Assembly: GCA_014728225.1 (NCBI GenBank)
Contig: WJLX01000012.1
Span: 591 to 64,590 of the forward strand
DNA from: Candidatus Coatesbacteria bacterium
GTDB taxonomy: Bacteria; RBG-13-66-14
Length of the DNA stretch: 64,000 nt
Direction of reading: 5' to 3'
Both the position numbers and the translations under genes were made by a program. Below are positions 6,767 to 56,481 of the stretch, piece by piece (position 1 is the first letter of the stretch; each line of letters begins with the position of its first letter). Below the pieces are notes generated by a model. That model was not told where the DNA came from. It saw only the letters and a program-made list of their open reading frames with translations, and did not search any database.

Positions 6767-6820
6767 ACGAACTCCATCGCGTTGGTGGTCGAAGGGCGGG
6801 CGGTTGATACCGGAGCAGCG

Positions 6821-7009
6821 CCCGAGAGACCGTTGACGAAACGGCTGCGCGGTCGGGCTCGTCGCGGTCGGAACCGGCACGGTTTTTGCGGAGGCCGACC
6901 GTTAACGTCGGCCGTAACGGTCGCCGAGATGCAAAAACCGTGCCGGTTCCGACCGCCGTGGCGTTGTCGGGTGTCGGCGCGGCGGGCCTTGCGTCAACGG
7001 TCTCTCGGG
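6821..7009. repeat. nested palindromic repeat element, copy B (core 6866..6954, GGAGGC-first orientation)
   Basis: Same 22-bp arms as copy A. Inner hairpin GACCGTTAACG...TAACGGTC. Outer inverted repeat CCCGAGAGACCGTTGACG (6821-6838) / CGTCAACGGTCTCTCGGG (6992-7009). Confidence 0.8.
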
Positions 7010-8286: not shown

Positions 8287-8429
8287 CGCGTCCATTATAG
8301 CACCCCGGACGCCCGGGTCAATGCCGTCGTTGATGCCCCTTGCAGTACCGGCCTCCAATCGGCTATGCTATTAGCCGTCCAGGGTCGATTCTACCGCGAG
8401 TCCCCGGGAGGGCGACTTTGCCGCTGTTC

Positions 8430-20939: not shown

Positions 20940-22508
20940 CTATTTACGGGTCGGGGCTTTGGGGTGCATCACGGCGCAGGGGATGATCATCTCGGGCATC
21001 GAGACGCCGCCGTGCTGGAAGGCGCCGGCGTAGTAGCGTCGCTGCTCGTGCTGACGGTAGGAGTAGACGAAGTTGTAGTCCTCGAGGGCGATCAGGTAGT
21101 TCTTGCCGATGCGCTCGGCGGGCAGGCGCCATTCGCCCGGACGGTCGATCAGCAGGGCGCCCTCGCCCTCGTAGCGCAGGTTCTGGCCGAACCACAACCG
21201 CAGGCCCTTGCTGGTGCGCTTGTCACAGTAGGCGATCACGGCCCGGCGGGTCTGGATGCTGCCGTGATCGGTGGTGATGACCACGGTGCAGTCGCGGCGG
21301 GCCAGCTCCTTGAGCCCGGCCAGCAGCTTCGAGTGGGCGAACCACGAGGCGGCCACGCTGCGGAAGCTCTGCGGCGTGTTGCTCATCTCGCTCAGGACGT
21401 CGAAGTAGGCCCGCTCGTGAGTCAGCACGTCGACGAAGTTGATCACCAGGGCGTAGAGGGTGGGATCACGCCAGCCGCGGAACAGCTCGGCGATATCGGC
21501 GTCGGCGCTGGTGCCGCGGGCCTTCTTGTAGCGCGGCCGTCGGGGCGGCTGGACGCCGTGGCGCTCCAGGCAGGCCCGCATCAGCTCGGCCTCGAACTTG
21601 TTCAGGCTGGCGTCCTCTTCGGAACGCTCGATCCACCAGTCGGGATACCGCTCGGCGATCTGGGCCGGGAAGAGGCCGGAGAAGATGGCGTTGCGGGCGT
21701 AGTTGGTGCTGGTGGGGATGATCGAGAAGTAGGGGAAGTCGTCGATCAGCCAGTCGGCCTCCAGGAAGCGCCGGAACAGCAGCCAGGCGTCGTAGCGCAT
21801 GGCGTCGATGACGATGAAGTACACCGGCCGTTTCTGGCCCAGGAAGGGGAAGACCACCCGGGGCAGGATGTCCGGGGCCAGCAGGGGCCGGCCGCCCTCG
21901 TCGGCGATCCAGTCGCGGTAGTTGTCGATGACGAAGCGGGCGAAGTGGGCGTCGTCCTCGCGCAGCAGTTGGTGGTGCAGGTCGTAGAGGTCGCGGTCCC
22001 GGGCGCTCTCCAGGGCGATATCCCACTTGACCAGGCTGACGTAGCGCTCCAGCCAGTCGTCGGGGTCGGCCAGCTCGTCCCGGGAGCTGTCGAGCTGGCG
22101 CAGCTCGGTCATGTAGCGCTGGACCAGGCTTTGGGCCTCCAGGGCCCGGGCCTCGAGGATGCGCTTGAGCACGCTGACCAGCTGGCTGGGCTTGACCGGC
22201 TTGACGACGAAGTCGTCGGCCGCCAGGCCGTAAGCCTCGTTCATCAGCTCCTCCTGCTCCCCCTTGGTGACCATCACCACGGGGAGCTCGGGGCGGATGC
22301 GCTTGAGTTCGGCCAGGGTCTCGGTGCCGGTCAGGCCCATCATCTGCTCGTCGAGGAGGACGAGGTCGAAGTGCTGCTCCAGCACGGCGCGCAGGGCGTC
22401 GTCGCCGTTGGTGACCCCGGCCACCTCGTAGCCCCGGCGCTTGAGGTACAGCACCTGGGAGCGCAGCAGCTCGATCTCGTCATCGACCCAGAGGATCTGC
22501 TTCTTCAT
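20940..22508 (-). CDS. porX: PorX-like response regulator (REC receiver + PglZ/alkaline-phosphatase-like domain)
   Basis: MKKQILWVDDEIELLRSQVLYLKRRGYEV... 522 aa. The domain order and many residues match how I remember Porphyromonas PorX: ILWADDEIDLL, PVVMVTK, YARNAIFSGL, FQHGG. Confidence 0.8.
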   Translation of the reverse strand: MKKQILWVDDEIELLRSQVLYLKRRGYEVAGVTNGDDALRAVLEQHFDLVLLDEQMMGLTGTETLAELKRIRPELPVVMVTKGEQEELMNEAYGLAADDFVVKPVKPSQLVSVLKRILEARALEAQSLVQRYMTELRQLDSSRDELADPDDWLERYVSLVKWDIALESARDRDLYDLHHQLLREDDAHFARFVIDNYRDWIADEGGRPLLAPDILPRVVFPFLGQKRPVYFIVIDAMRYDAWLLFRRFLEADWLIDDFPYFSIIPTSTNYARNAIFSGLFPAQIAERYPDWWIERSEEDASLNKFEAELMRACLERHGVQPPRRPRYKKARGTSADADIAELFRGWRDPTLYALVINFVDVLTHERAYFDVLSEMSNTPQSFRSVAASWFAHSKLLAGLKELARRDCTVVITTDHGSIQTRRAVIAYCDKRTSKGLRLWFGQNLRYEGEGALLIDRPGEWRLPAERIGKNYLIALEDYNFVYSYRQHEQRRYYAGAFQHGGVSMPEMIIPCAVMHPKAPTRK

Positions 22509-22561
22509 CGGCGGCTCTCTTCCAGGATCCCCCGGTTAACGTTACGGACGGCCCGCCGGTT

Positions 22562-23815
22562 TCAAATCTGTCCGGCCGGGGCGAGCTCGATGGTGAAGGT
22601 GGTGCCTTCGCCGAGGCGGGAATCGACACTGATCCGCCCGTGGTGGTAGTCGCTGATGATCCGCTTGGCCAGGGTCAAGCCCAGGCCCCAGCCGCGGTGC
22701 TTGGAGCTCTTGCCGGCGTCGAAGGCGTGACGCCGCATGTGGCGGGTCATCCCCGGGCCGTCGTCGGCGATCTTGATCACGACCAGGTCGCCCCGGCGTT
22801 CGAGGGTGACCTCGATGGAGCCCACCGGGGTGCTGACGCCGGGATCCAGGGCCTGCTCGACGCGGCGCTCCCGGGCCTCGCGGGTGCGGGCGCCGGCCTC
22901 GGCAGCGTTGCGGATCAGGTTCTCCAGCACCCAGCCGAAGAGGATCGGGTTGAGGGGCACCGGCGGCGTGTCCTCCAGCCGCGTCTTCAGGGCGACGTTG
23001 GCCAGGCTGATCCGTTTCCGGCAGTATTCGACGGCCTCTTCGACCACGGGCCGCGGGTTCAACGGCTCCAGCTCCGGGGCCGAGCCGACCACGGCGAAGC
23101 GGTTGACGATGGCCTCCAGCCGGCCGATGTCCGAGGCCAGCTCGGGCAAAACGTCGGGCAGGCTGGCCGGGTCGTCCTTGAGCAGCTCCAGCCAGCCCAG
23201 CAAACTGGAAACCGGCGTGCCGAGCTGGTGGGCCGTCTCCTTGGCCAGACCGACCCAGATGGCCTGCTGCTGGGACAGACGGAAGCGGTGGTTGGCGTAC
23301 AGCCCCAGCCCGCCGAAGAGGATGATGAAGCCGATGCCCACGCCGGGCACCCAGGCCAGGGAGCGGATGAAGTCGGGCAGGCGGTAGTGCAGGCGGAACA
23401 GCTCGCGCTCGAAGACTTCGCCGGTGGCTCGGTGGGTCTTGCGCTGGACCAGGCTGACCGGTTCGTTGGCCTCGTCCATCTCCTTGGCGATGCGCAGGAT
23501 CTCCAGGCGGGAATCGCTGTCGACGGGTTTGAGTCCGCCGGGCATGTTGCGCGAGGTGACGATCCGGCCGTCGACGGTGGTGACGACGGCGGGAAAGTCC
23601 AGCATCCCGCGCAGGCTCTCGACGATCTCGTCGAGCAGCCCCTGGGGGACCTCGGTGGCCGAGAGGATGGCCGACGAGACGTCGGCGTAGGCCAGGGCGA
23701 CGCTGCGGTACTCGTCCTCGAGGCGGTTGATCAACAGGTTGGAGTAGACGAACAACCCGACGCCGACGAGGACGAAGAGCAGGATGAAGTACAGGGTGAT
23801 CCGCCGTAGAACCAT
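22562..23815 (-). CDS. porY: sensor histidine kinase (PorY-like), cognate of the PorX-like regulator
   Basis: Two TM segments. H-box HQLGTPVSSLLGWLELL. HATPase_c motifs NAAEAG and DDGPGM, plus GWGLGL. Sits immediately upstream of porX in the same orientation. Confidence 0.7.
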   Translation of the reverse strand: MVLRRITLYFILLFVLVGVGLFVYSNLLINRLEDEYRSVALAYADVSSAILSATEVPQGLLDEIVESLRGMLDFPAVVTTVDGRIVTSRNMPGGLKPVDSDSRLEILRIAKEMDEANEPVSLVQRKTHRATGEVFERELFRLHYRLPDFIRSLAWVPGVGIGFIILFGGLGLYANHRFRLSQQQAIWVGLAKETAHQLGTPVSSLLGWLELLKDDPASLPDVLPELASDIGRLEAIVNRFAVVGSAPELEPLNPRPVVEEAVEYCRKRISLANVALKTRLEDTPPVPLNPILFGWVLENLIRNAAEAGARTREARERRVEQALDPGVSTPVGSIEVTLERRGDLVVIKIADDGPGMTRHMRRHAFDAGKSSKHRGWGLGLTLAKRIISDYHHGRISVDSRLGEGTTFTIELAPAGQI

Positions 23816-23816
23816 C

Positions 23817-24326
23817 TCAATCGCCCGGGGGGGTCTCCAACAGCAATCCGGCCTCGCGCTCGCAGGTCGCCGCCAGCTCGCTGAGGTGGCCGACCAGACC
23901 GGCGGGCTCGACGACGACGGGCAGGTCCAGGGCCAGGTACAAGCGGCGGCCGTCGGGGTGCAGGGCGTACTTGTAGCCCGCCAGGGCGAAGCTGCGCTCC
24001 AGGGCCCGGCGGGCCAGGGCAGCGCCCAGCAGGGGCGGGGTTTCGCCGTCGGCCGGGGCCGGCAGCTCCACCAGCAGGGCGCTCAGGAACAGCCGACCCT
24101 CGTCCAGATAGACGGTGATCCGCCAGTCACTGCGCCGGCCGGCGTAATCGACGTACAGGCGTCGGGGCTCGGCGGGATCGCTGGTGACCGTCAGCCCGGC
24201 CTCTTCGAGGGCTTGCAGGTATTCGACGGGGGCGGGCGGTTCCGCGTCGGTGGTCGGGGGCGTCGCGGCGGTCGCGGCGGCCAGGGCCGCGATGAGCAGT
24301 ACCGGCGCTGCCGACCGCTGCTTCAT
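23817..24326 (-). CDS. secreted hypothetical protein
   Basis: Start at MKQRSAAPVLLIAALAAATA (signal peptide). No recognisable catalytic motif. Confidence 0.4.
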   Translation of the reverse strand: MKQRSAAPVLLIAALAAATAATPPTTDAEPPAPVEYLQALEEAGLTVTSDPAEPRRLYVDYAGRRSDWRITVYLDEGRLFLSALLVELPAPADGETPPLLGAALARRALERSFALAGYKYALHPDGRRLYLALDLPVVVEPAGLVGHLSELAATCEREAGLLLETPPGD

Positions 24327-25370: not shown

Positions 25371-27539
25371 TCAGTCGGCGAAGGGCTGGAGACCCAGCAG
25401 GTGGTTGGAGTTCTGATCGACGAGGTAGAGCTCCTCGACGCTGCTCCCGGCCACGGACCAGGGTCGCAGGGTCTCGACGTCGGGCTCACCGAGGTGCGAA
25501 GGCGCCACCAGCTCCAAGCGCTCGCCCCGGCGACGCACCGCCCGCAGGTCGATGGTTCCCAGGTGCTCCAGGGCCGGAGCGGCGGCGGCGGGGTTGCCGC
25601 CGTAGAGGTTGTCGGAACCTGCTCCGCGGCGGACCGGCCGGGTGGCGTCGAAGAACTGCAGCCGGTTGTTGTCGCCGCCCTCGGCCACCACCAACACGCC
25701 CTCCCGGGTGACCGTCAGGTCCGTCGGGGTGCGCAGTTGGCCCGGACCGTTGCCGTAGACGTCGAGTTCACCCAGGTAGTCGCCGGCGAAGCTGTAGATG
25801 ATGATCCGGTTGGCAGAGAGGTCGATGACGTACAGCCGGCCGTCGGGTCCGACGGCCAGGCGCGTCGGCTGGGCCAGGGCCGCCCCCCGGGCCGGGCGGA
25901 CGCCGATCTCCAGGTCCCAGCGCCCCGAGGGGCCCCAGCCCTGGAGCCGGTGGTTGAGGGTGTCGGCGACCAGCAGGAACCCGCCGTGATGAACGACGTC
26001 CTGGGGCCGGTTGAGGCTGCCCGGGGCGTCGCCGATCTTGCCCCGGCTGTTGTACAGGTAGCTGCCGTCAGGATCGTACTGCTTGATCGTCGAGTTGTGG
26101 GTGTCGGCGATCCAGACGCCGCCGTCGTCGTCGACGGCCACGGCGCTGGGGCCGGAGAGGGCGCCCTCGCCCCGGTGATCGCCGAAGCAGATCAGCGGCG
26201 CCCGGCGGCGGGAAGCGCTCTCGCGCTTGAGGGTTTCCAGATAGGTCCGCAGCGGCAGGCGGTGGACCCGGTTCTGGTTGTACTCGATGATGAAGAGATC
26301 GCCGCGGTGTTCGTCGACGTAGTAGGGATGCAGGCGCTGGAGCCCCAGGCTCGGCCTGGCGCTCAGGTCCCAGGCCCGCAAAGTGGTCAGCCCCGCCAGT
26401 CGCCGACGCAGGAGCTGGAGCTCCTCCCGATCGCCGACGGTCTCCTCGTTCGGCCGGGGCGGTCGCTGCGGAGCGTGGCGACGCTCGATCCGGCGCGGCG
26501 GCGGCGGGTTGTCGACCAGGGTCAACTCGACGTCGGCCTCGGCGGACAAAGTTGCGGGCGCGGCGGCGCCGGAGCGGGGCTCGGTCCTGCGGCGACGGGG
26601 CTTGACGGGTTCGGGACGCCTCAGGGGTCGCGGTGTGCGCCCCGCCAGATAGACCCGGTTGCGCCCGGCGTTCTTGGCGGCGTAAACCGCCTTGTCCGCG
26701 GCGTGGAGGACGGCGGCCCCGTCGGCGCCGTCCTCCGGATAGAGCCCGACGCCCAGGCTGGCGGTGACCCGGAAGCTGATGCCCTTCTCGGGCACGGGAA
26801 CGGTCTCGGCGGCCAGCTCGCGCCGGACCTTCTCGGCGATGCGGGCGCTTTTGGCCAGGTCGGCGTCGACCAGGATCAGGACCATCTCCTCGCCGCCCCG
26901 GCGCACGGCGAAGTCGCCGTCCCCCGCCGAGCGGCGCAGAACCGCGGCGGCGCTGCGCAGGGCGCGGTCGCCCACGGCGTGGCCGTAGGTGTCGTTGACC
27001 GATTTGAAGTGATCGAGGTCCAGCATCACCACGCCGTAGCGGCCGAAGCGCTCGGCGGCTTCACCGAAGCGGCGTTCCAGCTCGTCCTGACTGTAAAGCC
27101 CGGTCAGGGTGTCGAGCTGGGAGAGCTTGTCGTTGATGATCCCGGTCAGCAGCTCGACGAAGCCGCCGCAGGCCTGGAAGTCGTGTTCGCCCAGCTTGTG
27201 CGGCGGTTCGAGACCGAAGATCTCCAACCGACCGTAGAGCTGACCGCGGTGGTGCAGGGGCAGGGAGAAAACGGGGCTGCGGGCCTCGTTGCCATCCCCC
27301 GCCCCGGGCAGTTCGAGATAGCTCAACTCGGCGTCCTTGCCCGGGCTGCCCACGGGACGCTTGTCGAACAACGGGCAGTAGCGCGGATACCAGACCAGAC
27401 GCGGACGGCGGCAGGCCGTGATCCGGGTCAGGTGCTCCAAAACGGCGCGGAAGACCTCGACGATGTCGTCGGAGTTCCGCGACAGCTTCATCAGCTCGGT
27501 GAACGAGCCGGCGATACTGAAGTCGTCGCTCGCAGCCAC
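25371..27539 (-). CDS. diguanylate-cyclase (GGDEF) domain protein fused to C-terminal NHL-repeat beta-propeller
   Basis: GGDEF core: LDLDHFKSVNDTYGHAVGDRAL...RRGGEEMVLIL, i.e. a GGEEM variant. Pro/Arg-rich linker. Then NHL-like repeats (LNRPQDVVHHGGFLLVADTLNHRLQ; RLYVIDLSANRIIIY). Confidence 0.7.
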   Translation of the reverse strand: MAASDDFSIAGSFTELMKLSRNSDDIVEVFRAVLEHLTRITACRRPRLVWYPRYCPLFDKRPVGSPGKDAELSYLELPGAGDGNEARSPVFSLPLHHRGQLYGRLEIFGLEPPHKLGEHDFQACGGFVELLTGIINDKLSQLDTLTGLYSQDELERRFGEAAERFGRYGVVMLDLDHFKSVNDTYGHAVGDRALRSAAAVLRRSAGDGDFAVRRGGEEMVLILVDADLAKSARIAEKVRRELAAETVPVPEKGISFRVTASLGVGLYPEDGADGAAVLHAADKAVYAAKNAGRNRVYLAGRTPRPLRRPEPVKPRRRRTEPRSGAAAPATLSAEADVELTLVDNPPPPRRIERRHAPQRPPRPNEETVGDREELQLLRRRLAGLTTLRAWDLSARPSLGLQRLHPYYVDEHRGDLFIIEYNQNRVHRLPLRTYLETLKRESASRRRAPLICFGDHRGEGALSGPSAVAVDDDGGVWIADTHNSTIKQYDPDGSYLYNSRGKIGDAPGSLNRPQDVVHHGGFLLVADTLNHRLQGWGPSGRWDLEIGVRPARGAALAQPTRLAVGPDGRLYVIDLSANRIIIYSFAGDYLGELDVYGNGPGQLRTPTDLTVTREGVLVVAEGGDNNRLQFFDATRPVRRGAGSDNLYGGNPAAAAPALEHLGTIDLRAVRRRGERLELVAPSHLGEPDVETLRPWSVAGSSVEELYLVDQNSNHLLGLQPFAD

Positions 27540-27680
27540 GTCCCTAGCTTACCACGAGCGACCGTCGCAGACCAGGGGTTGCTCGACCGCCGTCTTGACC
27601 GGCGGCGGGCGCCGTGGTAGGGTTTTGCCGTTGGGCAAACCCACGCGAGCCCCGTCTCGACAACAATGGACGGTCGAACC

Positions 27681-30859: not shown

Positions 30860-30871
30860 GGGGACGTCGAG

Positions 30872-33800
30872 GTGGATGAGCTGCGGCGCGATCTGGAACG
30901 CTTTCTGCCCCCGGGGCTGGTGCGCTACGCCGTCAGCGACGCCGAGCGCATCGACGCCCTGCAGCGGGAGCTGGGCGTTCTCGAACGCCGCCACCACACC
31001 CTGGCCCTGGCCTGGCCTCTGCGCGGGGTCCTCGAGGGCGGGGGCTTTTTGCTGCCCGGAACGGTGCTGGCCGGCGATGTCGGCGCCCAGGACCACCCGA
31101 CCCACCGGCGGGCCGCCGAGGTGCTGCTGGCGGCCCTCGAGGAGTACAACGGCCGGCTGTTGGCCTGGGGCGCGGGGACCTTCCTGGCCTTCTTCCCCGG
31201 AGTCACCGCCTCGGGCTCCAGCACCCAGGCCAATTATTTTCGCGCCTGCCAGACGGCCAGCGAGATGGCCGAGCTCGAGCTCCCCGGCCTGCGCCAGGCC
31301 TTGACGGCGGGGCGGGGTGGTCTGGTGGTCTGCGCCGCCCTGGAGCGCAAGCTGACCGTGCCCGTCGGTGGAGCCGTCGGCGCGGCCCTGACCCTGACCG
31401 CGGCCGCCGAGCCGGGGACGATCCGCCTGTCGACGACGATGGCCGAGGTGGTCGCCGAGCGCTTCCAGGTCGTCGAGGGCTCCGGCGGTCCCCTGTTGGG
31501 AACCATCCTCTCCGGCCGTCGGGTCAACAAGGCCCTCGTCGAAGACCAGGCCCCCGTGCCGCCCGAGCATCTCCTCGACCGCCTGGCCCAGGCGGCGGCG
31601 GGGATGGAGCGCGCCCGGCCCTGGCTGGCCCCCTGGCAACTCGAGCCCCTGGGCGCCCGCTTCAGCGGACGGCGACCGCTGACCGCCGAGGCCGTCCTGG
31701 CCCTGGCCTGGCCGCCACCGGGCGAATCGGCCAACCGCGGCGCCGCCCTCGAGGAGCGCCTGCGCGTCGAGGCCGAACTCTGCGCCAACTGGGACGGCGA
31801 GCTCTGGGGGTTGGTACCGCACCCCGACGGACTCTGCAGCGCCTACGCCTTCCCCGACGTCCGCGCCGCCGGTGCGGCGGCCCTGGCCGTGCTGGCCGAG
31901 ACCGACGATCGCGGCGGGGCCATCGAGGTCGGCGAACTCTGCGATCATTACCTGCGGGGTCCCCGCTCCTCGGCGGCGGCTCCGGCGGGGAGGGCCTTGC
32001 GTTCGGCCTGCGGTGAGGCCCTGCTGGCCCCGACCGGGGAGCTGGTCTGTCATCCCGCCAGCCGGGACGAGGTCGAGCCGGAATTCGAAATCGTCCGCAG
32101 CCTCGAAGTCGCCGATCGCCCCCTGGCCGTGCTGCGCGCCGCCGCCGAGCGCGAGGAGGCCGGCCGGCCCCTGTTGGGCTGCGGCGAGCTGCTGGAGAAA
32201 ACGGACGCCTGGCTGGAGGAGTTGCGCCGCGGCGGCTCCATCGTCGGCGTGGTCACCGGCGGCCCCGGAGCGGGTAAGAGCCGGGCCTGCCGCGAGCTGC
32301 GCGACCTGTTCGCCGAGCTGGGCGACGCCCACCTGTTCCGTTGCCAATCCTGGTGGGCCTACGATCCCTACAGCCTGTGGCGGCGGACCCTGCTGGCCAT
32401 CTGGGGCCCCCCGGCCAGCACGGCGGCCAACCGGGCCCTGCGCGAGGCCCTCGGCGAGGCGGCCCCGCGCCTGGGCGAGTTCATCAGCCGCTTCACCGGC
32501 GGCGAGCTCTCCGAACCGCTGTGGGGCTTGAGCCCGCGCCAGAAGGGTCAGATGGCCGGCGAGCTGCTGCTGGCCGCCCTGCGCGCCCGCGAGGGCCGAC
32601 CCCTGGCCCTGGTCATCGACGACGCCGACTGGCTCGACGCCGGCAGCCTGCAACTGGTGCGTTCGTTGAGCGCGGCCGGTCTGCCCCTGGCGGTGATCCT
32701 CTGCTGCCGCCGGGCCCCGGAGGAGCTGAGCGCCCAGTACGCCGAACTCCAGCCCCTCGAACCCGACGAAGCCGCCGACCTGTTCGCCGACGCCGCCGGG
32801 CGTCCCGGGCCTTTCATCGAGCGCCTGCCGCGACGGGAGCTGGTACCGGGCAAGCTGTCCCACCTGGCCGCCCTGGCCGCCGCCGGAGCCGATCCGGCCC
32901 TGGGCGCTCGGCTGTCCCTGGAGCGCCTGGGGCAGGAGCTGCTGCGTCTGGAGCCCGACGGCGAGGCGCCGCAACTGGTCTCCGTCCTGGGGCCCCGCTT
33001 CGGCGCCGGGGACCTGGCCGCCGTCACCGACGGGGTCAGCGAGCTGCGCCGCCGGCTCGAATCCAGCCGCCTGCTGGAGCGCAGCGGCGGCGAGTACGCC
33101 TTCCGCGGCCGCGCCGTCTGGCAGGCCGCCTACACCGCCCTGGAACCTCGCCGTCGCCGGGAGCTGCACTTTCGCGCCGCCCGTTTCTACCAGCGCCAGC
33201 ACCGCGGCGTCGTCGCCCAGGCCGTCGCCCACTTCATGAACTGCGGCGATCCCGGTGAGCGGGTCACGGCGCTGGAGCTCGCCGGAGAGCGCGCCGCCGC
33301 CGTCGGCTCCTTCACCGCCGCCCGCCGCTACCTCCGCGAAGCCGTCGCCGCCGCCACCAACCGCCGCGACACCCGCCGCCTGATCGCCAAGCTGGCCGCC
33401 ATCCACACCCACGCCCGCAACTACCCCGAGGCCGACCGGCTCTACGACAACCTGCTCGAGGAGGCCGAGGAAGCCGAGCAGCGCCAGGCCGCCGAGTTGG
33501 CCCTCGATCGCGCCGAGCTCCAACTCGCCGTCGGCGATCCCGAGATGATCGAGCGCTGGGTCGCCCGCGCCGCCGCCCTGGAACCCGAGCTCGATCCACC
33601 GCGCCGGTCCTATCTACTCGGTGAGGCCGCCAAACTGCGCGGCGACGCCGAGGCGGCCCGCGAACATCTGGGTCGGGCCGCCGAAGCGCCCACCCCCGAG
33701 GGCGCCCGGGCCGCCGTCCGCCTCGGTCGACTGCTCCTCGGGGCTGATGAAACCGCCGAGGCTCTGGAATTTCTCCGGCGCGCCGAAGCCTGGGCCCGGC

Positions 33801-35014
33801 AGCAGAGCCATGTGGCCCTGATCGTCGAGGCCGTCCGCCTGGCCGCCGACGCCCACGCCGCCCGCGGCGCCGTCGACGAGGCCCGCGCGGCCCTCGAACA
33901 GGCCCTCGAGCGCGAGCGCGCCCTGCTGCAGGTCCAGCCCGTCGCCGAGACCCTGAGCGCCCTGGCCGATTTCTACGCCGCCGCCGGGGAGCGCCGCCGG
34001 GCCCTCGACTGCCTGACCGAGGCCGAGGCTACCTTCACCCGCCTCGAACTGCCCGTCAAACGCCTCGACGCCCGGGAGCGCCGCGCCGCCGTCAGCGCCG
34101 ACCTGGGCCGGATCGCCGTCGCCCGAGAGATCCTCGAAGAGGTGAGCGTCAAGCGCCGCGGCCTGCGCGACCGTTTCGGCGCCACCCGCTGCGCCCTGCT
34201 CGAGGGCCGCTTGGCCGCCCTGCAGGGTGACTGGCGCACCGCCAACAATGCCTACGACCAGGCCCTCCTCGGCGCCCGCGAGGTCGCCGACGAAGAGCTG
34301 ATCGCCGCCGCCCGACGCGGCCACGCCCACTCGCTGTTACATCAAGGAAGACTCGCCGAGTTCGACGAAAGCCTCGGGGAACTGGAAGCCGCCGAAGCCG
34401 CCTTGCTGAGCGGCGAACTATACCGCCTGCTCTACCTCTTCGACACCGCCGCCCGGGAGCACCGCCGGACCCTCGACGCCGACCCCGACTCCCTCGAACG
34501 CCGCCTGGCCCTGGCCCTCGATCACCTGAGCGCCGGCAACAGCCGGGCCGGAAAGCGCCTGCTCGCCGAAACCGCCTGGCCGCCGGCCCCCAGACTCGAA
34601 CTGGAACTCGATTACCGTCGGGCCCGGGTGCTAGTGACCCTGATCGAACACAAACCCGCCCGGGAAACCGAGCTCCAACGCTACCGCGAGCTGGCCGAAG
34701 GCGCCGACGCCGTCGTCCACCGCGCCCTGGCCGCCAAGGACGCCGCCGCCGGCCTGGTCCTCGACGGTGAACTCGCCGCCGCCCGGGAGCTCATCGACAG
34801 CGCCCTGACCCGCGAACCGCCCGCGATCGTCGGCTGGCAGTTGCAGTTCTTCGCCGGTCTGCTCGCCGGACGCGACGGCGACGCCGACGCCCGCGGCGAG
34901 TTCTTCGGCCAAGCCCTGCGTTCCCTCGAAGACTTCCGCCGCCGCCTGCCCGACGCCGAACTCCAGCGACGCCTCCAGCGCAGCGAAACCTACAACGCCC
35001 TGCGCCGCGGCTGA
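30872..35014 (+). CDS. giant STAND NTPase with N-terminal degenerate (pseudo) nucleotide-cyclase-like domain and extensive TPR repeats
   Basis: GTG start. P-loop VVTGGPGAGKSRACREL near aa 470. N-terminal segments align to class III cyclase motifs but lack the metal-binding Asp residues (TLALAWPL; GRLLAWGAGTFLAFF; GLVVCAALERKLTVPVGGAVGAALTLTAAAEPGTIRLS). About 800 aa of TPR-like helices follow. The antisense 1185-aa ORF is an artefact. Confidence 0.6.
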   Translation: MDELRRDLERFLPPGLVRYAVSDAERIDALQRELGVLERRHHTLALAWPLRGVLEGGGFLLPGTVLAGDVGAQDHPTHRRAAEVLLAALEEYNGRLLAWGAGTFLAFFPGVTASGSSTQANYFRACQTASEMAELELPGLRQALTAGRGGLVVCAALERKLTVPVGGAVGAALTLTAAAEPGTIRLSTTMAEVVAERFQVVEGSGGPLLGTILSGRRVNKALVEDQAPVPPEHLLDRLAQAAAGMERARPWLAPWQLEPLGARFSGRRPLTAEAVLALAWPPPGESANRGAALEERLRVEAELCANWDGELWGLVPHPDGLCSAYAFPDVRAAGAAALAVLAETDDRGGAIEVGELCDHYLRGPRSSAAAPAGRALRSACGEALLAPTGELVCHPASRDEVEPEFEIVRSLEVADRPLAVLRAAAEREEAGRPLLGCGELLEKTDAWLEELRRGGSIVGVVTGGPGAGKSRACRELRDLFAELGDAHLFRCQSWWAYDPYSLWRRTLLAIWGPPASTAANRALREALGEAAPRLGEFISRFTGGELSEPLWGLSPRQKGQMAGELLLAALRAREGRPLALVIDDADWLDAGSLQLVRSLSAAGLPLAVILCCRRAPEELSAQYAELQPLEPDEAADLFADAAGRPGPFIERLPRRELVPGKLSHLAALAAAGADPALGARLSLERLGQELLRLEPDGEAPQLVSVLGPRFGAGDLAAVTDGVSELRRRLESSRLLERSGGEYAFRGRAVWQAAYTALEPRRRRELHFRAARFYQRQHRGVVAQAVAHFMNCGDPGERVTALELAGERAAAVGSFTAARRYLREAVAAATNRRDTRRLIAKLAAIHTHARNYPEADRLYDNLLEEAEEAEQRQAAELALDRAELQLAVGDPEMIERWVARAAALEPELDPPRRSYLLGEAAKLRGDAEAAREHLGRAAEAPTPEGARAAVRLGRLLLGADETAEALEFLRRAEAWARQQSHVALIVEAVRLAADAHAARGAVDEARAALEQALERERALLQVQPVAETLSALADFYAAAGERRRALDCLTEAEATFTRLELPVKRLDARERRAAVSADLGRIAVAREILEEVSVKRRGLRDRFGATRCALLEGRLAALQGDWRTANNAYDQALLGAREVADEELIAAARRGHAHSLLHQGRLAEFDESLGELEAAEAALLSGELYRLLYLFDTAAREHRRTLDADPDSLERRLALALDHLSAGNSRAGKRLLAETAWPPAPRLELELDYRRARVLVTLIEHKPARETELQRYRELAEGADAVVHRALAAKDAAAGLVLDGELAAARELIDSALTREPPAIVGWQLQFFAGLLAGRDGDADARGEFFGQALRSLEDFRRRLPDAELQRRLQRSETYNALRRG

Positions 35015-50018: not shown

Positions 50019-50864
50019 TTGGTCCCCAGCTTAAAAAGGCTGCTGGCGGCTCTGCGCCGTCTGCCCGGCATCGGCGCCAAATCCGCCCAGCGCATCGGCT
50101 ACCACCTCCTGCGCGCCGACGACCAACAGAGCCTCGAACTCGCCCGCTCCATCGTCAACCTCACCCGCCGCGTCGGACTCTGCTCCATCTGCGGCAACAC
50201 CGCCGAGGTGGGCCGCAATCAAGAACGGGCCAAGTACGGGGGCCACGCCTTAGAAGACGGACGGACCACCCGCGAAGAACCCACCGACGAGCCGGGCCGC
50301 AATCAAGAACGGGCCAAGTACGGGGGCCACGACTTAGAAGGCGGACGGACCACCCGCGAAGAACCCGCCGGCGAGCCGGGCCGCAATCAGGGGGGGCCGC
50401 ATAATGGGGGCGGATCACCCGCAGAGGCGGATTACGAGACCCCCGACGGCGGCGCGACAAGCCTCGTCTGCGACATCTGCGCCGATCCCGAACGCGACCA
50501 CGGCCGCCTGCTGATCGTCGAGGAACCCTACAACGTCGAGGCCTTCGAGCGCACCGGCGTTTACGACGGCTACTATCACGTCCTGGGGGGCTTGTTCGAT
50601 CCCCTCGCCGGGATCGGCGCCGAGGAGCTGAGCCTCGACCACCTGGTCGTCCGCCTGCGCCGCGGCGCCTATCGCGAGGTCATTCTGGCCACCAGTCCGA
50701 CCTCGGCCGGTGAGGCCACCGCCTCTTATCTGCGGGAACTGCTCGAGCCTCTCGAACTCGAGGTCACCCGCATCGCCGTGGGCCTCTCCGCCGGCGCCGA
50801 CGTCGACTACGCCGACGAGGTCTCCCTGCGCCTGGCCCTCGAGGGACGCCGCCGCTTTAGCTGA
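50019..50864 (+). CDS. recR: recombination protein RecR carrying an ~85-aa low-complexity insertion inside the zinc finger
   Basis: MVPSLKRLLAALRRLPGIGAKSAQRIGYHLL (helix-hairpin-helix). CSICGN ...[insert]... CDICAD. Toprim/C-terminal RecR motifs are intact. Confidence 0.8.
   Translation: MVPSLKRLLAALRRLPGIGAKSAQRIGYHLLRADDQQSLELARSIVNLTRRVGLCSICGNTAEVGRNQERAKYGGHALEDGRTTREEPTDEPGRNQERAKYGGHDLEGGRTTREEPAGEPGRNQGGPHNGGGSPAEADYETPDGGATSLVCDICADPERDHGRLLIVEEPYNVEAFERTGVYDGYYHVLGGLFDPLAGIGAEELSLDHLVVRLRRGAYREVILATSPTSAGEATASYLRELLEPLELEVTRIAVGLSAGADVDYADEVSLRLALEGRRRFS
50211..50392 (+). repeat. in-frame 84-bp tandem repeat (~2.2 copies) inside recR
   Basis: GGCCGCAATCAAGAACGGGCCAAGTACGGGGGCCAC... 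repeated at 50211 and 50295, with a third partial start at 50379. Encodes GRNQERAKYGGH(A/D)LE(D/G)GRTTREEP(T/A)(D/G)EP. Confidence 0.8.
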
Positions 50865-51139: not shown

Positions 51140-51637
51140 ATGGAACACGAACAAAGCGTTGAGCTTTTCGAGGAAGATTATCAAATCATCAACCGCGTGC
51201 TGTCCCGTCTGCTGACGGAGGCCAACGCCCGCATCGTCCTGCTGGTCGACCGCTCCGGGCAGTTGATCAGCTCCCACGGCGACACCTCCAATATGGACTC
51301 CACCGCCTTCGCCAGCCTGTCGGCGGGCAACTTCGCCGCCACCAGCGCCCTGGCGAAGATCCTCGGCCAGGACGAGTTCTCCGTGCTCTTCCACCAGGGA
51401 GAGAAGGAGTCCATCCATATCTCCATCGTCCAGAGTCGGGTCATCCTGGTCATCGTTTTCGACAACCGCACCAGCCTCGGTCTGGTACGGCTGCGGGTCA
51501 AGAAGGCCCTCGAAGAGCTGTCCACCGTCTTCGAGAACATCTTCGCCAAGCTGGGCGCCTCCAGCCAGAGCCGCAGCCTGGACTCCTCCTTCGCCTCGGT
51601 CGCCGAGAGCGAGATCGATAATCTCTTCAAGGACTAA
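51140..51637 (+). CDS. mglB: Roadblock/LC7-domain protein (MglB-like GTPase-activating protein)
   Basis: Roadblock fold hallmarks: VLLVDRSGQLISSHGD...AALSAGNFAA. Located immediately upstream of mglA. Confidence 0.7.
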   Translation: MEHEQSVELFEEDYQIINRVLSRLLTEANARIVLLVDRSGQLISSHGDTSNMDSTAFASLSAGNFAATSALAKILGQDEFSVLFHQGEKESIHISIVQSRVILVIVFDNRTSLGLVRLRVKKALEELSTVFENIFAKLGASSQSRSLDSSFASVAESEIDNLFKD

Positions 51638-51705
51638 CCAGCGGGCGGCGCGTCCGGCTCCAAGCGAACGCCGCCGCTTCTTAAAAGCACGGGGGATGGC
51701 TCTCG

Positions 51706-52299
51706 ATGTCGCTGATCAACTACGCCAATAAGGAGATCAACTGTAAGATCGTCTATTACGGTTGCGGCCTGTGCGGCAAGACGACCAACCTGCTCTACAT
51801 CCACAAGAAGATCGCCGCCGAGTACCGCGGCAAGCTGGTCAGTCTGGCCACCGAAACCGACCGCACCCTGTTCTTCGATTTCCTGCCCCTCGATCTGGGC
51901 AGCATCCAGGGCTTCACCACCCGCTTCCACCTCTACACCGTCCCCGGCCAGGTCCACTACGACGCCTCGCGCAAGCTGATCCTCAAGGGCGTCGACGGCC
52001 TGGTCTTCGTCGTCGACTCCCAGGTCGAACGCATCGAGGACAATATCGAGAGCCTGGAGAACCTCAAGGTCAATCTGCGCAGCCAGGGCTACGAACTCGA
52101 TGACCTGCCCATGGTCGTGCAGTACAACAAGCGCGACCTGCCAAACGTCGTCCCCGTCGAGGAGCTGGAGCGCCAGATCAACCACCGCAACGACCCCAGT
52201 TTCGAATCCATCGCCACCGAGGGCGTCGGCGTCTTCGACACCCTGCGCGCGATCAGCAAGCTCATCCTGGCCAGCATCAGCCAGAAGCAATCCGTCTAG
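51706..52299 (+). CDS. mglA: Ras-like small GTPase MglA
   Basis: MSLINYANKEINCKIVYYGCGLCGKTTNLLYI...TETDRTLFFDFLPLDLG...FHLYTVPGQVHYDASRKLILKGVDGLVFVVDSQ...QYNKRDLPN. Near-identical motif-for-motif to the Myxococcus MglA sequence as I remember it. Confidence 0.9.
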   Translation: MSLINYANKEINCKIVYYGCGLCGKTTNLLYIHKKIAAEYRGKLVSLATETDRTLFFDFLPLDLGSIQGFTTRFHLYTVPGQVHYDASRKLILKGVDGLVFVVDSQVERIEDNIESLENLKVNLRSQGYELDDLPMVVQYNKRDLPNVVPVEELERQINHRNDPSFESIATEGVGVFDTLRAISKLILASISQKQSV

Positions 52300-52506
52300 T
52301 CTTTTCATCCAGGCGACTCCGGCGACGTCCGTCGGGGAGGTAACCCGTTCCCGATGCTGGAAGAGGCACCACCCGTCCTGCGCTGAAACACTGGGGTGGA
52401 TGGCCGCCCTTCCGGCCTCTTTACGCCGGACAACCGACGACCGTCAGCGTCCGTTACGCGCCGCCGAGCAACCCCAAACCCGACCGGAAGCCAACCACCG
52501 CCGACC

Positions 52507-53127
52507 ATGCCCTTCGATGGAGACTTAAAGGATTTCGCCCTGCCCGACATCCTGCAGATGCTGCAGATGGGTAAGCGCACCGGCGCCCTGTCGATCCGGC
52601 GCGGTGAGGATATCGGCACCCTCTACTTCCGCAAGGGCGAACTCGTCCACGCCACCTTCGCCAACATGACCGGCGAGGATGCCGCCTACGCGCTGTTGAA
52701 ATGGAAGAACGGCCGCTTCCGCTTCGACACCACCATCTATCCCACCCGGCGGACCATCGACATCTCCGCCACCAATCTGATTCTGGAATCGGCGCGGCGC
52801 TCCGATGAGCTGCGCGACCTGCAGACCGAGCTGCCGCCGCCGGACACCGTGCTGACCTTCGCCAAGGTCGAGGGCGCCCACGACGATATTCACCTCTCGC
52901 CCCAGCAGTGGAAGGTCCTGGCCCTGATCGACGGCGCGCGCACCATTACCGAGATCTGCGCCGTCTCGGACCAGGATGAGGTCACCGTGCTGCAGACCCT
53001 CGAGGAGATGATCAATATCGGCCTGGTCAGGCGGGTCGGGGATAACGCGGCGGGCGAGGAGGAGATCGACCTCGACGAGGAAATCGGCGCCCCCGACGAT
53101 GACTGGGACCGTCCGCCGGGCTCCTGA
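52507..53127 (+). CDS. DUF4388-domain protein downstream of mglA
   Basis: MPFDGDLKDFALPDILQMLQMGKRTGALSIRRGEDIGTLYFRKGELVHA matches the DUF4388 N-terminal signature. Acidic C-terminus. Confidence 0.55.
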   Translation: MPFDGDLKDFALPDILQMLQMGKRTGALSIRRGEDIGTLYFRKGELVHATFANMTGEDAAYALLKWKNGRFRFDTTIYPTRRTIDISATNLILESARRSDELRDLQTELPPPDTVLTFAKVEGAHDDIHLSPQQWKVLALIDGARTITEICAVSDQDEVTVLQTLEEMINIGLVRRVGDNAAGEEEIDLDEEIGAPDDDWDRPPGS

Positions 53128-53203: not shown

Positions 53204-55387
53204 ATGAAAAACCTCTTGGCAGTGCTGAATCCGGCGCAGCAGAAGGCGGTGACCCACCGCGGGGCGCCCCTGCTGGTTCTCGCCGGCGCCGGTACGGGCA
53301 AGACGCGCACCGTCACCGTGCGCATCGCCCATCTGCTCGAAGAGGACGGCGTCCAGCCCGACGAGATCCTGGCCATCACCTTCACCAACAAGGCCGCCGG
53401 GGAGATGCGTGAACGGGTCAACTCCCTGCTGGGGGCCGAGGAGACCCGGGGCACCGCCGAGCGCATCTGGATCCACACCTTCCACGCCTTTTGCGCCCGG
53501 GTCCTGCGCCGCGACATCCACCACCTGCCCGACCGCGAGCGCGAATTCGTCATCGCCACCCAGGCCGACCAGCGCTCGATCATCAAGCGCCTGATCGGCC
53601 CGGAGCGCAGCGGCGACGTCAAGCCCAACGAGGTCGTCAGCGTCATCTCCCGGGCCAAGAACAACCTCGTCCAGGCCGGCTCCTTCCCCGCCTCCACGGC
53701 GCGGGAGAAGCGTATCAAGGAGCTGTTCCTGGAGTACGAGAGCCAGCTCCGCGACACCAACGCCCTGGACTACGCCGACCTGATCCTGCTGACCGTCACC
53801 CTGTTCCACGAGTACCCGGACGTGCTGGCCCGTTACCGCCGCCGCTTCCGCCATATCCTCGTCGACGAGTACCAGGACACCAACACCGCCCAGCACGATC
53901 TGATCCGCCTGCTGGCCGGCGCGGGCGAGAACCTCTGCGTCGTCGGCGACCCCGACCAGAGCATCTACCGCTGGCGCGGCGCCGAGCCCGAGAACATCGC
54001 CCGCTTCCCCGAAGAGTTCCCCGGCGCCCGGATCATCAAGCTACTGGAGAACTACCGCTCGACGCGCAACATCCTCAAGGTCGCCAACGCCCTGATCGCC
54101 AACAACCCGCTGACCTTGGGCGAGGACAAGGAGCTGTGGACCAAGGGCGAGGAGGGCAAGCGGGTCATCGTCTACGCCGGGCCCGACGAGTACGACGAGA
54201 GCGGCTGGATCGCCACCCAGATCTTCAACGCCGTCCACAACCGGGACGAAGGCGGCTACGACGACTATGCCGTGCTCTACCGCACCAACGCCCAGAGCCG
54301 GGTCCTCGAGGACGCCCTGCGCAAGCGCTCGATCCCCTACAACATCATCGCCGACGTCCGTTTCTACGACCGGCGCGAGATCCGCGATCTGCTGGCCTAC
54401 CTGCGCCTGCTGGTCAACCCCAACGACCTGCTGTCCTTCCGCCGCATCGTCAACGTCCCCAGCCGCGGCGTGGGCAAGATCTCGGTCAACACGATGATGG
54501 AGGAGGTCGAGAAGGACCGCAGCCACCTGCCCGACGTCATCCGCCGCTGCATCGACGAGGAGCTGATCCCGCCCCGGGCCCGACGGGCCGTCGACAACCT
54601 GATGGAGCTTCTCGACGAACTGACCACCCGGCGGGCGCCCGTGGACGAACTCCTCGAGGAGCTGCTCGAGCGCATCGACTACACCGCCTGGCTGCAGAAG
54701 TCCAACGACGCCGTCAGCCGCCTGGAGAACGTCGAGCAGTTCCTGGAGACCGCCCGCGACTTCACCGCGGCCAACCCCGAGGGCAGCCTGGAGGACTTCC
54801 TCGAGGAGGTCTCTCTGACGGCGCCGATCGACAACTTCGACGAGCACGCCGGCTCGGTCTCCCTGCTGACCCTCCACGCCGCCAAGGGGCTGGAGTTCCC
54901 CGTCGTCTTCATCAGCGGCCTGGAGGAGGGGCTGATCCCCCTGGTGCGCCGGAGCTCCCGCGAGGCCGAGGCCGAGTTGCAGGAGGAGCGCCGCCTGCTC
55001 TACGTGGGCATCACCCGCGGCCAGTACCGCGTCTACCTGACCCGGGCCCTGCGGCGCAACCTCCAGGGGCGCAAGGTCTACAACCAGCCCAGCCGGTTTT
55101 TGAAGGAGCTGCCGCCGGACCTGCTCGACGACCGCTCCATCCGCGAACTCAACGTGCTGTCGACCACCGAGGACCTGCGGGCCGTCGAACAGAAGAAACA
55201 GCGCGTCAAGAAGGCCCAGAAGGGCGTCGTCTTTTCGACGGGGGATCGGGTGTGGCACGACAAGTGGGGCCGGGGGATCATCCTCTCCCGGGCCGGCGAC
55301 GGTCCCAACCTCAAGCTGACCGTCAAGTTCGCCCGTCACGGGATCAAGAAGCTGGTGGCCAAATACGCCAACCTGCAAAAGATGTAA
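53204..55387 (+). CDS. uvrD: UvrD/PcrA-family ATP-dependent DNA helicase
   Basis: Helicase motifs: GAGTGKTRT; TFTNKAAGEMRER; VDEYQDTN; LENYRST; TLHAAKGLEF. C-terminal Tudor-like tail. Confidence 0.85.
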   Translation: MKNLLAVLNPAQQKAVTHRGAPLLVLAGAGTGKTRTVTVRIAHLLEEDGVQPDEILAITFTNKAAGEMRERVNSLLGAEETRGTAERIWIHTFHAFCARVLRRDIHHLPDREREFVIATQADQRSIIKRLIGPERSGDVKPNEVVSVISRAKNNLVQAGSFPASTAREKRIKELFLEYESQLRDTNALDYADLILLTVTLFHEYPDVLARYRRRFRHILVDEYQDTNTAQHDLIRLLAGAGENLCVVGDPDQSIYRWRGAEPENIARFPEEFPGARIIKLLENYRSTRNILKVANALIANNPLTLGEDKELWTKGEEGKRVIVYAGPDEYDESGWIATQIFNAVHNRDEGGYDDYAVLYRTNAQSRVLEDALRKRSIPYNIIADVRFYDRREIRDLLAYLRLLVNPNDLLSFRRIVNVPSRGVGKISVNTMMEEVEKDRSHLPDVIRRCIDEELIPPRARRAVDNLMELLDELTTRRAPVDELLEELLERIDYTAWLQKSNDAVSRLENVEQFLETARDFTAANPEGSLEDFLEEVSLTAPIDNFDEHAGSVSLLTLHAAKGLEFPVVFISGLEEGLIPLVRRSSREAEAELQEERRLLYVGITRGQYRVYLTRALRRNLQGRKVYNQPSRFLKELPPDLLDDRSIRELNVLSTTEDLRAVEQKKQRVKKAQKGVVFSTGDRVWHDKWGRGIILSRAGDGPNLKLTVKFARHGIKKLVAKYANLQKM

Positions 55388-55392
55388 GCGGG

Positions 55393-56481
55393 GTGGGAGC
55401 AGTGACAGTCAAACAGATCGCCCTGGAGGACATCGAGCGCGGGATCCGCGCCGTCCTGACCGAGAAGGGGCGCGACAAGGAAGAGCTCATCCAGGGCTTC
55501 CTCGACATCCTCGGCCGGGGGATGGGGGTCAGCCGCGCCTGCTACAACGAGAAGCAGGGCCAGAGCTTCATCACCGCCCTGGAGTGGTGCAACGACGGCA
55601 TCAAGCCCTCCCTGGGCCAGAAGCTGCCCGACCGCTTCATGCGCGCCCTGGTCACCGGCGACATCCACTACTTCACCCGGGAGACCGCCGCCGGGTTGCT
55701 GCCCAAGGAGCTGAAGTTCATCGCCGGCACCGTGCTGTCGATCCTGGAGTTCCTGCAGAACATCACCGCCATCATCGCCGGGCCGATCTACATCGACGGC
55801 CAGATGACCTCCGTGGTCTCCCTGGATATCTGCCGGGAGCATCGGGAGCGCAAGGACTGGAACCGGGAGCAGCTCGACTTCACCGCCAAGATGATCCGCC
55901 TGCTGGGCGACGAGCTGCGCCGCCGTCACTGGTCGGCCCCGATCAAAGCCGAGCCCAAGTCCGCCCTGTTGGTTCTCGATCTGGTCCAATCGACCAACCT
56001 GGTCCTCGACTACGGCGACGACATCTACATCGACCAGATCGATCTGTTTCACAAGGCGTTCATGGAGCACCCCTCCTCCCGGGAGCTGATCTTCATCAAG
56101 AACACCGGCGACGGCTTCCTGGTCGTCTACCGCAACGCCCGGGACTGCTTCACCGTGGCCTGGGACTTCCTGCTCGACAACCCCCTGCAGGACAGCCGGC
56201 TGCGGATCGGCATCCACTGGGGTTCCATCAAGAGCGGCGTCGGCGGCGACCCCCTGGGCGTCGAGGTGCACCGCGTCTTCCGTATCGAAGGTGTCAGCAC
56301 CCGGGACCGCGTCTTCGCCACGGGCTTCCGCAAACTGCCGCCCCACGGGCGGATCATGGCCACCCAGGAGATCCTCAACCTGCTGACCAAGGAGCAGCGG
56401 CGCTACTTCCACCGCGCCGGTCGCTTCCGTCTGCGCGGTTTCGCCGAGCCCTGCCCCCTCTGGGTGGCCAGCCGCGATTGA
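55393..56481 (+). CDS. GAF-domain-containing class III adenylate/guanylate cyclase
   Basis: GTG start (55393 or 55402). N-terminal GAF-like ~180 aa. C-terminal cyclase domain: ALLVLDLVQST...GDGFLVVY...RLRIGIHWGS...GDPLGVEVHRVFRIEG. Confidence 0.65.
   Translation: MGAVTVKQIALEDIERGIRAVLTEKGRDKEELIQGFLDILGRGMGVSRACYNEKQGQSFITALEWCNDGIKPSLGQKLPDRFMRALVTGDIHYFTRETAAGLLPKELKFIAGTVLSILEFLQNITAIIAGPIYIDGQMTSVVSLDICREHRERKDWNREQLDFTAKMIRLLGDELRRRHWSAPIKAEPKSALLVLDLVQSTNLVLDYGDDIYIDQIDLFHKAFMEHPSSRELIFIKNTGDGFLVVYRNARDCFTVAWDFLLDNPLQDSRLRIGIHWGSIKSGVGGDPLGVEVHRVFRIEGVSTRDRVFATGFRKLPPHGRIMATQEILNLLTKEQRRYFHRAGRFRLRGFAEPCPLWVASRD

Follow-up and report, generated by a model that had tools for sequence, protein, structure and literature searches.

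A mglB-mglA polarity locus followed by a stand-alone PATAN gene in Candidatus Coatesbacteria, and the recurrence of this linkage in other phyla

In a 64,000-nucleotide stretch of Candidatus Coatesbacteria DNA (GenBank assembly GCA_014728225.1, contig WJLX01000012.1, positions 591 to 64,590; hereafter the window), three genes on the + strand at 51140-53127 encode a Roadblock/LC7 protein, a small Ras-like GTPase and a DUF4388 protein. Judged by sequence, the first two are a bona fide MglB-MglA module, i.e. the Roadblock GTPase-activating protein (GAP) and the Ras-like GTPase of the bacterial front-rear polarity switch. The third is a PATAN-domain protein, and PATAN genes are strongly associated with mglB-coupled mglA genes across phyla. 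On balance, we favour the view that the PATAN protein serves the MglA switch as adaptor or effector and that its probable target is the motor of type IV pili.

An earlier note on this DNA had proposed a GAP-GTPase pair with an uncharacterised DUF4388 partner. It was right about the module and the conserved partner and overstated the novelty, since the linkage of PATAN with MglAB is published and GenBank already has names for the proteins. Window proteins are identical to entries of a Candidatus Coatesbacteria metagenome-assembled genome (MAG): MBD3398943.1, named 'gliding-motility protein MglA', and MBD3398944.1, named 'DUF4388 domain-containing protein'. The partner carries a PATAN domain whose MglA/MglB neighbourhood is on record: the presence of MglB homologues near PATAN genes was remarked by Makarova et al. 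in 2006, and group 1 and group 5 mglA genes were described as 'occasionally' near PATAN genes by Wuichet and Sogaard-Andersen in 2014 (PMC4316618). 'Uncharacterised' therefore does not hold for this protein.

Identity of the three proteins

In phmmer searches against the PDB, the window GTPase matched Myxococcus xanthus MglA without gaps over residues 1-192 (E = 4e-93, 314 bits, about 70% identity) and Thermus thermophilus MglA at 1.5e-72; the next-best solved proteins were eukaryotic Arf proteins (1e-7). Group 1 MglA proteins are defined by an intrinsic arginine finger (R53) beside T54, TVPGQ instead of DxxGQ, NKxD and an mglB gene within four genes (PMC4316618), together with the length and G1 motif of a single-domain small GTPase (150-240 aa, GxxxxGK[ST]). 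All of these are found in the window protein: its length and its coupling to mglB fit, the P-loop reads GCGLCGKT, the arginine finger lies in D52-R53-T54, and G3 and G4 are T78-V-P-G-Q82 and N141-K-R-D144, respectively. Unlike M. xanthus MglA, which has Pro20, the window protein has Cys20 (codon at 51763-51765), giving two cysteines in the P-loop. The same P-loop is common to most MglAs of the Coatesbacteria and Zixibacteria types (L001-L028) and to a few from Thermodesulfobacteriota (L074, L075, L082).

SofG, a paralogue of MglA, is reported to be 239 aa long and not aided by MglB (PMC4316618). Window MglA was compared with it indirectly, by these reported traits, length and mglB coupling, and the grouping with SofG that the earlier note had named as a refutation did not emerge from this comparison. 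Window MglA has the length of M. xanthus MglA and no terminal extensions; it is 56-57% identical to myxobacterial homologues that are extended and uncoupled (L068, L072), versus about 70% for M. xanthus MglA.

The upstream protein has a Robl_LC7 Pfam match at 1.3e-14 and aligns with M. xanthus MglB structures (6h5b_B) over residues 8-164 at 3e-48. The C-terminal helix is included, with the window tail FASVAESEIDNLFK aligning to FAEISDDDIDNLFS of M. xanthus. The match to T. thermophilus MglB is weaker (2.6e-19), and the NCBIfam equivalog NF052242 gives 102.4 bits, below its cut-off of 200; this model is built on Thermus-type sequences, and window MglB is much closer to that of M. xanthus. The Roadblock/LC7 domain and the likeness over the full length, helix included, identify the protein as an MglB at the level of sequence. 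Thus, the GAP-GTPase pair suggested earlier was borne out by the M. xanthus matches of both proteins and by the group 1 hallmarks of MglA. The MglA catalytic motifs are intact; GTP binding and MglB-stimulated hydrolysis are predicted activities of the pair.

The third gene product matches PF14332/DUF4388 with 92.3 bits against a gathering score of 25 (E = 2.9e-26), which confirms the family assigned to it before. DUF4388 is the PATAN (PatA N-terminal) domain, labelled PatA_N in precomputed Pfam annotations, and the family is large (13,227 cluster representatives at E<=1e-3). Most close relatives match residues 1-175 of the query; therefore the conserved unit is larger than the 122-position Pfam model. 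In the AlphaFold2 model (predicted local distance difference test score, pLDDT, of 88) this unit is made of a beta-rich core (residues 3-74) followed by a long helix (88-108) and, at 132-176, a winged-helix-like part of three helices with H-H-H-E topology. Residues G5, G26, G44, H48-A49, W66, G69, F71 and F73 are conserved in the alignment. The acidic tail described earlier is real: 12 of its 28 residues (179-206; DNAAGEEEIDLDEEIGAPDDDWDRPPGS) are D or E, and its pLDDT is 51-62. A [DE]-W pair near the C-terminus of the tail is kept in four of five aligned Coatesbacteria homologues, and homologue P0008 has no tail.

No relative of the PATAN protein with a solved structure was obtained by sequence search. 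The N-domain modelled alone (pLDDT 82) had no significant match among solved structures, the best being GyrB/ParE fragments at E 0.035 and TM-score ~0.3. A longin/Roadblock-like fold was considered for this domain, as Foldseek matched the full model to Nprl2/Nprl3 of GATOR1/SEAC (E 5e-3, TM 0.28), and was rejected because the match did not recur with the N-domain alone. Short alignments with low root-mean-square deviation suggest that it derives from the winged-helix part of the model.

The 206-aa protein has no Response_reg match in Pfam and so is a stand-alone PATAN protein, not a PatA-type regulator. Lacking a receiver (REC) domain, it cannot be switched by phosphorylation as PatA-type regulators are. 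Among 76 longer PATAN relatives we found fusions with TPR (5), REC (4), FHA (1) and HAMP (1) domains, and none with a GTPase or a Roadblock domain.

Linkage of PATAN genes with mglB-coupled mglA

All Coatesbacteria contigs with PATAN homologues, down to 60% identity, have the order mglB-mglA-PATAN-pcrA, and recR lies 5′ of mglB in every relative whose contig reaches far enough upstream. In a wider survey, one genome per GTDB species was scanned with MglA, the best 80 loci (52-96% identity, many phyla) were kept, and their six-frame open reading frames (ORFs) were searched with iterated profiles for MglB, MglA and PATAN. mglB was adjacent to mglA in 52 of the 80 loci and uncoupled from it in 28. 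A PATAN gene was present within 6 kb (<=6 kb) in 40 of the 52 coupled loci, directly downstream in 24, directly upstream in 14 and elsewhere in 2; in 38 of the 52 it was directly adjacent on the same strand. Just two of the 28 uncoupled loci, which comprise Bdellovibrionota, WOR-3 and MglA-like proteins bearing long C-terminal extensions, had PATAN nearby. Linkage with DUF4388 is thus conserved in relatives, as synteny within Coatesbacteria and in the survey across phyla.

The arrangement differs between phyla. Loci of the Zixibacteria type have the order mglB-mglA-PATAN-pcrA-gatC-kelch-gatA, with housekeeping neighbours as in the window. Their downstream PATAN proteins, like those of allied candidate phyla, are ~350 aa long, while the Coatesbacteria ones are ~200 aa; the Zixibacteria-type orthologues carry an extra C-terminal region of 150-180 aa without a Pfam match that is missing from the window protein. 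In Thermodesulfobacteriota the genes run REC-PATAN, mglB, mglA, CheW-like, PAS histidine kinase, sigma54 response regulator, pilM, pilN, and both pilM and pilN are present in 13 loci of this phylum with REC-PATAN-mglB-mglA. Some Thermodesulfobacteriota loci have, in addition, a stand-alone PATAN-winged-helix protein and a Cache-HAMP protein upstream. Directly 5′ of mglB-mglA, two Thermodesulfobacteriota MAGs encode a REC-PATAN-Roadblock/LC7 fusion (L074:4316-5455, + strand, and L075); in L074 the Roadblock/LC7 domain is C-terminal and scores above the Pfam cut-off (8.5e-7). In a Rokubacteria locus (L067), a PilB/GspE-type ATPase (T2SSE 2e-143 plus MshEN) follows mglA, and REC-PATAN lies 3.4 kb upstream.

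Several further arrangements were seen around mglA. The order mglB-mglA-mglB2-PATAN occurs in MAGs of candidate phyla including Mcinerneyibacteriota (L026, L030, L032-L034, L037, L038, L040); in most of them mglA and PATAN are separated by mglB2, a second Roadblock gene of 154-159 aa. An Acidobacteria MAG (L079:7101-8922) has mglA followed by two Roadblock genes and a protein with MshEN and a DnaA-type ATPase. In Acidobacteriota loci without PATAN, a ~210-aa protein with weak TPR matches is encoded directly 3′ of mglA (L031:6600-7244, L039:6601-7224), and in Gemmatimonadota loci this place is taken by cinA. MglA-like G domains with C-terminal extensions of 100-300 aa, some with N-terminal ones too, were found in MAGs of Myxococcota, 'Deltaproteobacteria', Eisenbacteria, Planctomycetota and Aminicenantes (L049, L050, L053, L055-L063, L068, L069, L071, L072). 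They are 52-61% identical to window or M. xanthus MglA, and all except L063 have no mglB nearby; some of them may be SofG-like.

Possible roles of the PATAN protein

From the identities, conservation and gene contexts observed we infer direct binding, a direction of signalling and a target. The PATAN protein would be a protein-protein interaction component of the MglA switch and would couple the nucleotide state of MglA, or the pole marked by MglB, to a polar envelope machine, most probably the type IV pilus motor (PilB/PilC). This motor is the probable target because the PATAN domain of Synechocystis PixE and PixG binds PilB1 and the PilC N-terminus (PMC11181946; bioRxiv 10.1101/2021.06.11.447907) and because PATAN-mglBA genes lie inside the Thermodesulfobacteriota pilus clusters. 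According to the same Synechocystis studies, the PATAN domain alone suffices to switch the direction of movement in phototaxis; in M. xanthus, the leading pole is marked by MglA-GTP, which also promotes the formation of pili (PMC11580455). A bolder proposal, which we put forward tentatively, is that an ancestral MglA/MglB module, widespread outside myxobacteria (Coatesbacteria, Zixibacteria, allied candidate phyla, Thermodesulfobacteriota), had the stand-alone PATAN protein as its dedicated third subunit. Such a subunit would bind MglA/MglB directly and either link the switch to the pilus motor or supply polar anchoring or guanine nucleotide exchange factor (GEF) activity like that of RomR/RomX in Myxococcus.

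Several observations weigh against the adaptor reading. No type IV pilus or gliding genes were recognised in the window, and in the searched literature we found no demonstration of a physical interaction of PATAN with MglA or MglB. Twelve of the 52 mglB-coupled loci have no PATAN gene (Acidobacteriota, Gemmatimonadota and two MAGs labelled Coatesbacteria), and the two closest PATAN relatives outside Coatesbacteria (P0009, P0010) lie on short contigs where mglA is not their neighbour. The difference between coupled and uncoupled loci (40/52 vs 2/28; Fisher p = 8e-10) counts related genomes as independent, so that the P-value overstates the evidence, though the direction is clear. The M. xanthus mglBA operon, unlike the window locus, is not known to have a PATAN neighbour. 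Finally, the mglA-PATAN spacer is unconserved in Coatesbacteria (143-424 bp), and one subclade (L012-L014, L016) has a hairpin in it; co-transcription of mglA and PATAN is therefore uncertain. The PATAN gene may be co-transcribed with mglBA or served by its own promoter.

The 207-bp spacer of the window contains no terminator-like site (terminator scan), no Rfam match, no excess RNA structure (fold z-score 0.16) and, compared with 7 relatives, no conserved sequence except the start codon region. A regulatory RNA or conserved element in the spacer was rejected on the Rfam search, the alignment and the z-score. The hairpin of the subclade, GCGCCCCTCCGGaCCGGGGGGGCG, is conserved, GC-rich and absent from the window; it may attenuate or terminate transcription in these relatives.

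A close rival of the adaptor reading is that the PATAN protein acts on the switch itself, regulating the nucleotide cycle or polar placement of MglA as a functional analogue of RomR/RomX (GEF, polar recruiter), RomY (GAP co-factor) or MglC where lineages have none of these. RomR has a narrower distribution than MglA/MglB (PMC9481161), which leaves most MglA-bearing phyla without a known GEF. The specific tie of PATAN to mglB-coupled mglA, the REC-PATAN-Roadblock fusion and the second Roadblock gene interposed in the mglB-mglA-mglB2-PATAN loci would agree with this reading too. The C-terminal region of RomR is an acidic, Glu-rich tail, and the acidic tail of the PATAN protein may be likened to it in composition. 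We nevertheless consider direct regulation somewhat unlikely, given that the PATAN N-domain resembles none of the RomX, RomR, longin or Roadblock folds and that the sole known PATAN biochemistry is binding to parts of the pilus motor. It is also conceivable, but unlikely, that adjacency reflects an inherited gene order and has no functional meaning and that the PATAN gene is an independent transcription unit between mglA and pcrA. The unconserved spacer with no recognisable ribosome-binding site would fit this, as would the equal synteny of the housekeeping genes recR and pcrA and the location of P0009 and P0010 away from mglA. Gene-order drift, however, predicts no independent arrangements in distant phyla, and the linkage recurs in an unrelated phylum with another order and architecture (PATAN upstream and REC-fused), includes the PATAN-Roadblock fusion and hardly ever occurs where mglA lacks mglB; mere inheritance is less likely for this reason.

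The winged-helix-like C-terminal part raises the question of a DNA-binding transcription factor. It has weak HTH_27/HVO_A0114 Pfam matches and winged-helix structural matches, and a JGI record names a member of the cluster 'predicted transcriptional regulator'. The Pfam matches are below their cut-offs, though, the net charge of this part is -3 with an isoelectric point (pI) of 4.7 (4.5 for the whole protein), which favours protein binding over DNA binding, and studies of PatA-type regulators disfavour DNA binding and report membrane or motor localisation; we regard this role as very improbable. Equally improbable in our view is that the Mgl module and its DUF4388 partner control, with PorXY, gliding dependent on the type IX secretion system (T9SS) or the placement of that system, a link that the earlier note had raised as a possibility from co-occurrence. 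The organism is very probably T9SS-bearing, because the window encodes a PorX equivalog (REC-PglZ; 541.9 bits with NF052313, cut-off 300), a histidine kinase beside it and an M28 peptidase that carries a T9SS sorting domain, and no pilus genes are visible there to favour the alternative. Yet PorX is encoded on the other strand at a distance of 29 kb from mglBA, and the genes that separate them are unrelated, including tilS, mutS, proS, coaE and genes for a GGDEF protein, a glycosyltransferase-like TPR protein, a BamB-like protein and Entner-Doudoroff-type enzymes. No gld or spr genes were recognised in the window, and none of PorX, gld and spr in related mgl loci with annotated neighbours; the informative PATAN-mglBA contexts in other phyla are type IV pilus genes (pilM/pilN, PilB-type ATPases), not T9SS or gliding genes. 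The proposed connection is thus unsupported by these findings. Group 1 MglA is known in several phyla of the Fibrobacteres-Chlorobi-Bacteroidetes (FCB) group (PMC4316618), and we found no relevant report on motility of Coatesbacteria in the literature.

Gene surroundings and comparison with known systems

The window is high-GC DNA (about 65-75% GC) and contains one copy each of mglB, mglA and the PATAN gene, all with codon-position GC typical of real genes. The outer limits given in the earlier note stand, with all three genes on the + strand, and only the start of the third moves. The mechanical ORF 52396-53127 begins at GTG 52396; this start was dropped for ATG 52507, which is almost certainly the true one judging from the sequence comparison, because the GenBank protein has 206 aa, all homologues begin M-[PA]-F-[DE]-G at this place and the DNA upstream of it is unconserved. 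The word 'immediately', used earlier for the position of the Roadblock gene upstream of the GTPase gene, fits the mglB-mglA pair (68-bp gap) and is too tight for the third gene, 207 bp further on; pcrA follows after 76 bp. Coordinates are given in the table.

Table. Features of the mglB-mglA-PATAN locus and of other window genes discussed in the text
Feature	Coordinates	Strand	Evidence
mglB, Roadblock/LC7 GTPase-activating protein, 165 aa including C-terminal helix (FASVAESEIDNLFKD)	51140..51637	+	Pfam, phmmer vs PDB
mglA, group 1 MglA small Ras-like GTPase, 197 aa	51706..52299	+	PDB phmmer, motif residues
mglA-PATAN intergenic spacer, 207 bp	52300..52506	+	Terminator scan, alignment, fold z-score, Rfam
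Stand-alone PATAN (DUF4388/PatA_N) protein, 206 aa, pI 4.5	52507..53127	+	PF14332; identical to MBD3398944.1
PATAN core, residues 5-102, beta-alpha-beta3-alpha-beta	52519..52812	+	Pfam match coordinates, alignment, secondary structure
Winged-helix-like C-terminal part of conserved PATAN unit, residues 128-178	52888..53040	+	Weak Pfam matches, topology
Disordered acidic tail of PATAN protein, residues 179-206	53041..53124	+	pLDDT 51-62
recR, upstream neighbour outside the module	50019..50864	+	TIGR00615, 6.7e-58
pcrA/uvrD-type helicase, downstream neighbour outside the module, likely start ATG 53204	53204..55387	+	TIGR01073 pcrA, 1.8e-234
PorX	20940-22535	-	NF052313
Histidine kinase adjoining PorX	22562-24082	-	Pfam scan
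M28 peptidase with T9SS C-terminal sorting domain	4934-6901	-	Pfam scan

Some neighbouring genes have features of their own. recR contains an in-frame 84-bp tandem repeat in 2.3 copies (50198-50389, 93% matches, ~28 aa per copy), which falls within the zinc-finger region, between its two CxxC pairs; RecR is 281 aa long here versus 201-210 aa in relatives. PcrA has 727-729 aa in relatives. Directly 3′ of pcrA, a ~360-aa protein (55390-56481, +) belongs to no Pfam family and has a faint adenylate-cyclase-like NCBIfam match; it is kept at the same position in several Coatesbacteria relatives (L007-L009, where it has 361 aa, and L004, where it has 385 aa). A GGDEF-NHL protein (25371-27548) and a PD40 protein adjoin the histidine kinase next to PorX. 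Two very large STAND-type NTPase-TPR proteins are encoded at 8334-11567 (+) and 30860-35014 (+), the former with an N-terminal adenylate/guanylate cyclase domain.

Among the GTPase switches of bacterial polarity, MglA/MglB is the best studied, and what is known of its partners comes almost entirely from Myxococcus. RomR is narrower in distribution than the switch, and the hint at PATAN dates from 2006, when it was published as a remark on gene neighbourhoods. To this the survey adds that most mglB-coupled genes among the nearest relatives of window MglA have a PATAN gene alongside, that PATAN can be fused to Roadblock and that the module lies within a pilus gene cluster in one phylum. These points make PATAN as an adaptor between MglA/MglB and the pilus motor a testable hypothesis. 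Taken alone, the window yields no discovery: it adds a correctly annotated, sound and otherwise ordinary example from a candidate phylum about which little is known.

The window pair resembles the M. xanthus and T. thermophilus modules in that mglB lies directly 5′ of mglA, that MglA, with 197 aa, has R53, TVPGQ and NKRD, and that MglB combines the Roadblock signature with the C-terminal helix. The window differs in that neither pilus nor Agl/Glt genes are seen in it. RomR, RomX, RomY and MglC were not seen there either, in Pfam scans only and with no Rom-specific model run, and the same scans gave no receiver-domain protein other than PorX. The Thermodesulfobacteriota clusters (L073-L089) likewise combine PATAN, MglB and a group 1 MglA on a single strand. 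In those clusters the PATAN gene is upstream, REC-fused, sometimes Roadblock-fused and placed inside a pilus and two-component cluster, whereas the window gene is downstream, encodes a stand-alone protein and has DNA-repair and housekeeping genes around it.

By its PATAN domain, the protein is kin to PatA of Anabaena, PixG, PixE and LsiR of Synechocystis and SgnC of M. xanthus, with which it has in common the ~175-residue unit present in thousands of proteins. It differs from them in having just 206 aa, with a short disordered acidic tail, and from the PatA-type regulators (PATAN-REC) in having no receiver domain. It shows no sequence or fold likeness to RomR/RomX of M. xanthus, and RomR has a receiver domain; the Rom genes, moreover, were found by co-occurrence and not by adjacency (PMC9481161). 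Like RomR/RomX, however, the PATAN protein would be a third component encoded for the MglA/MglB switch.

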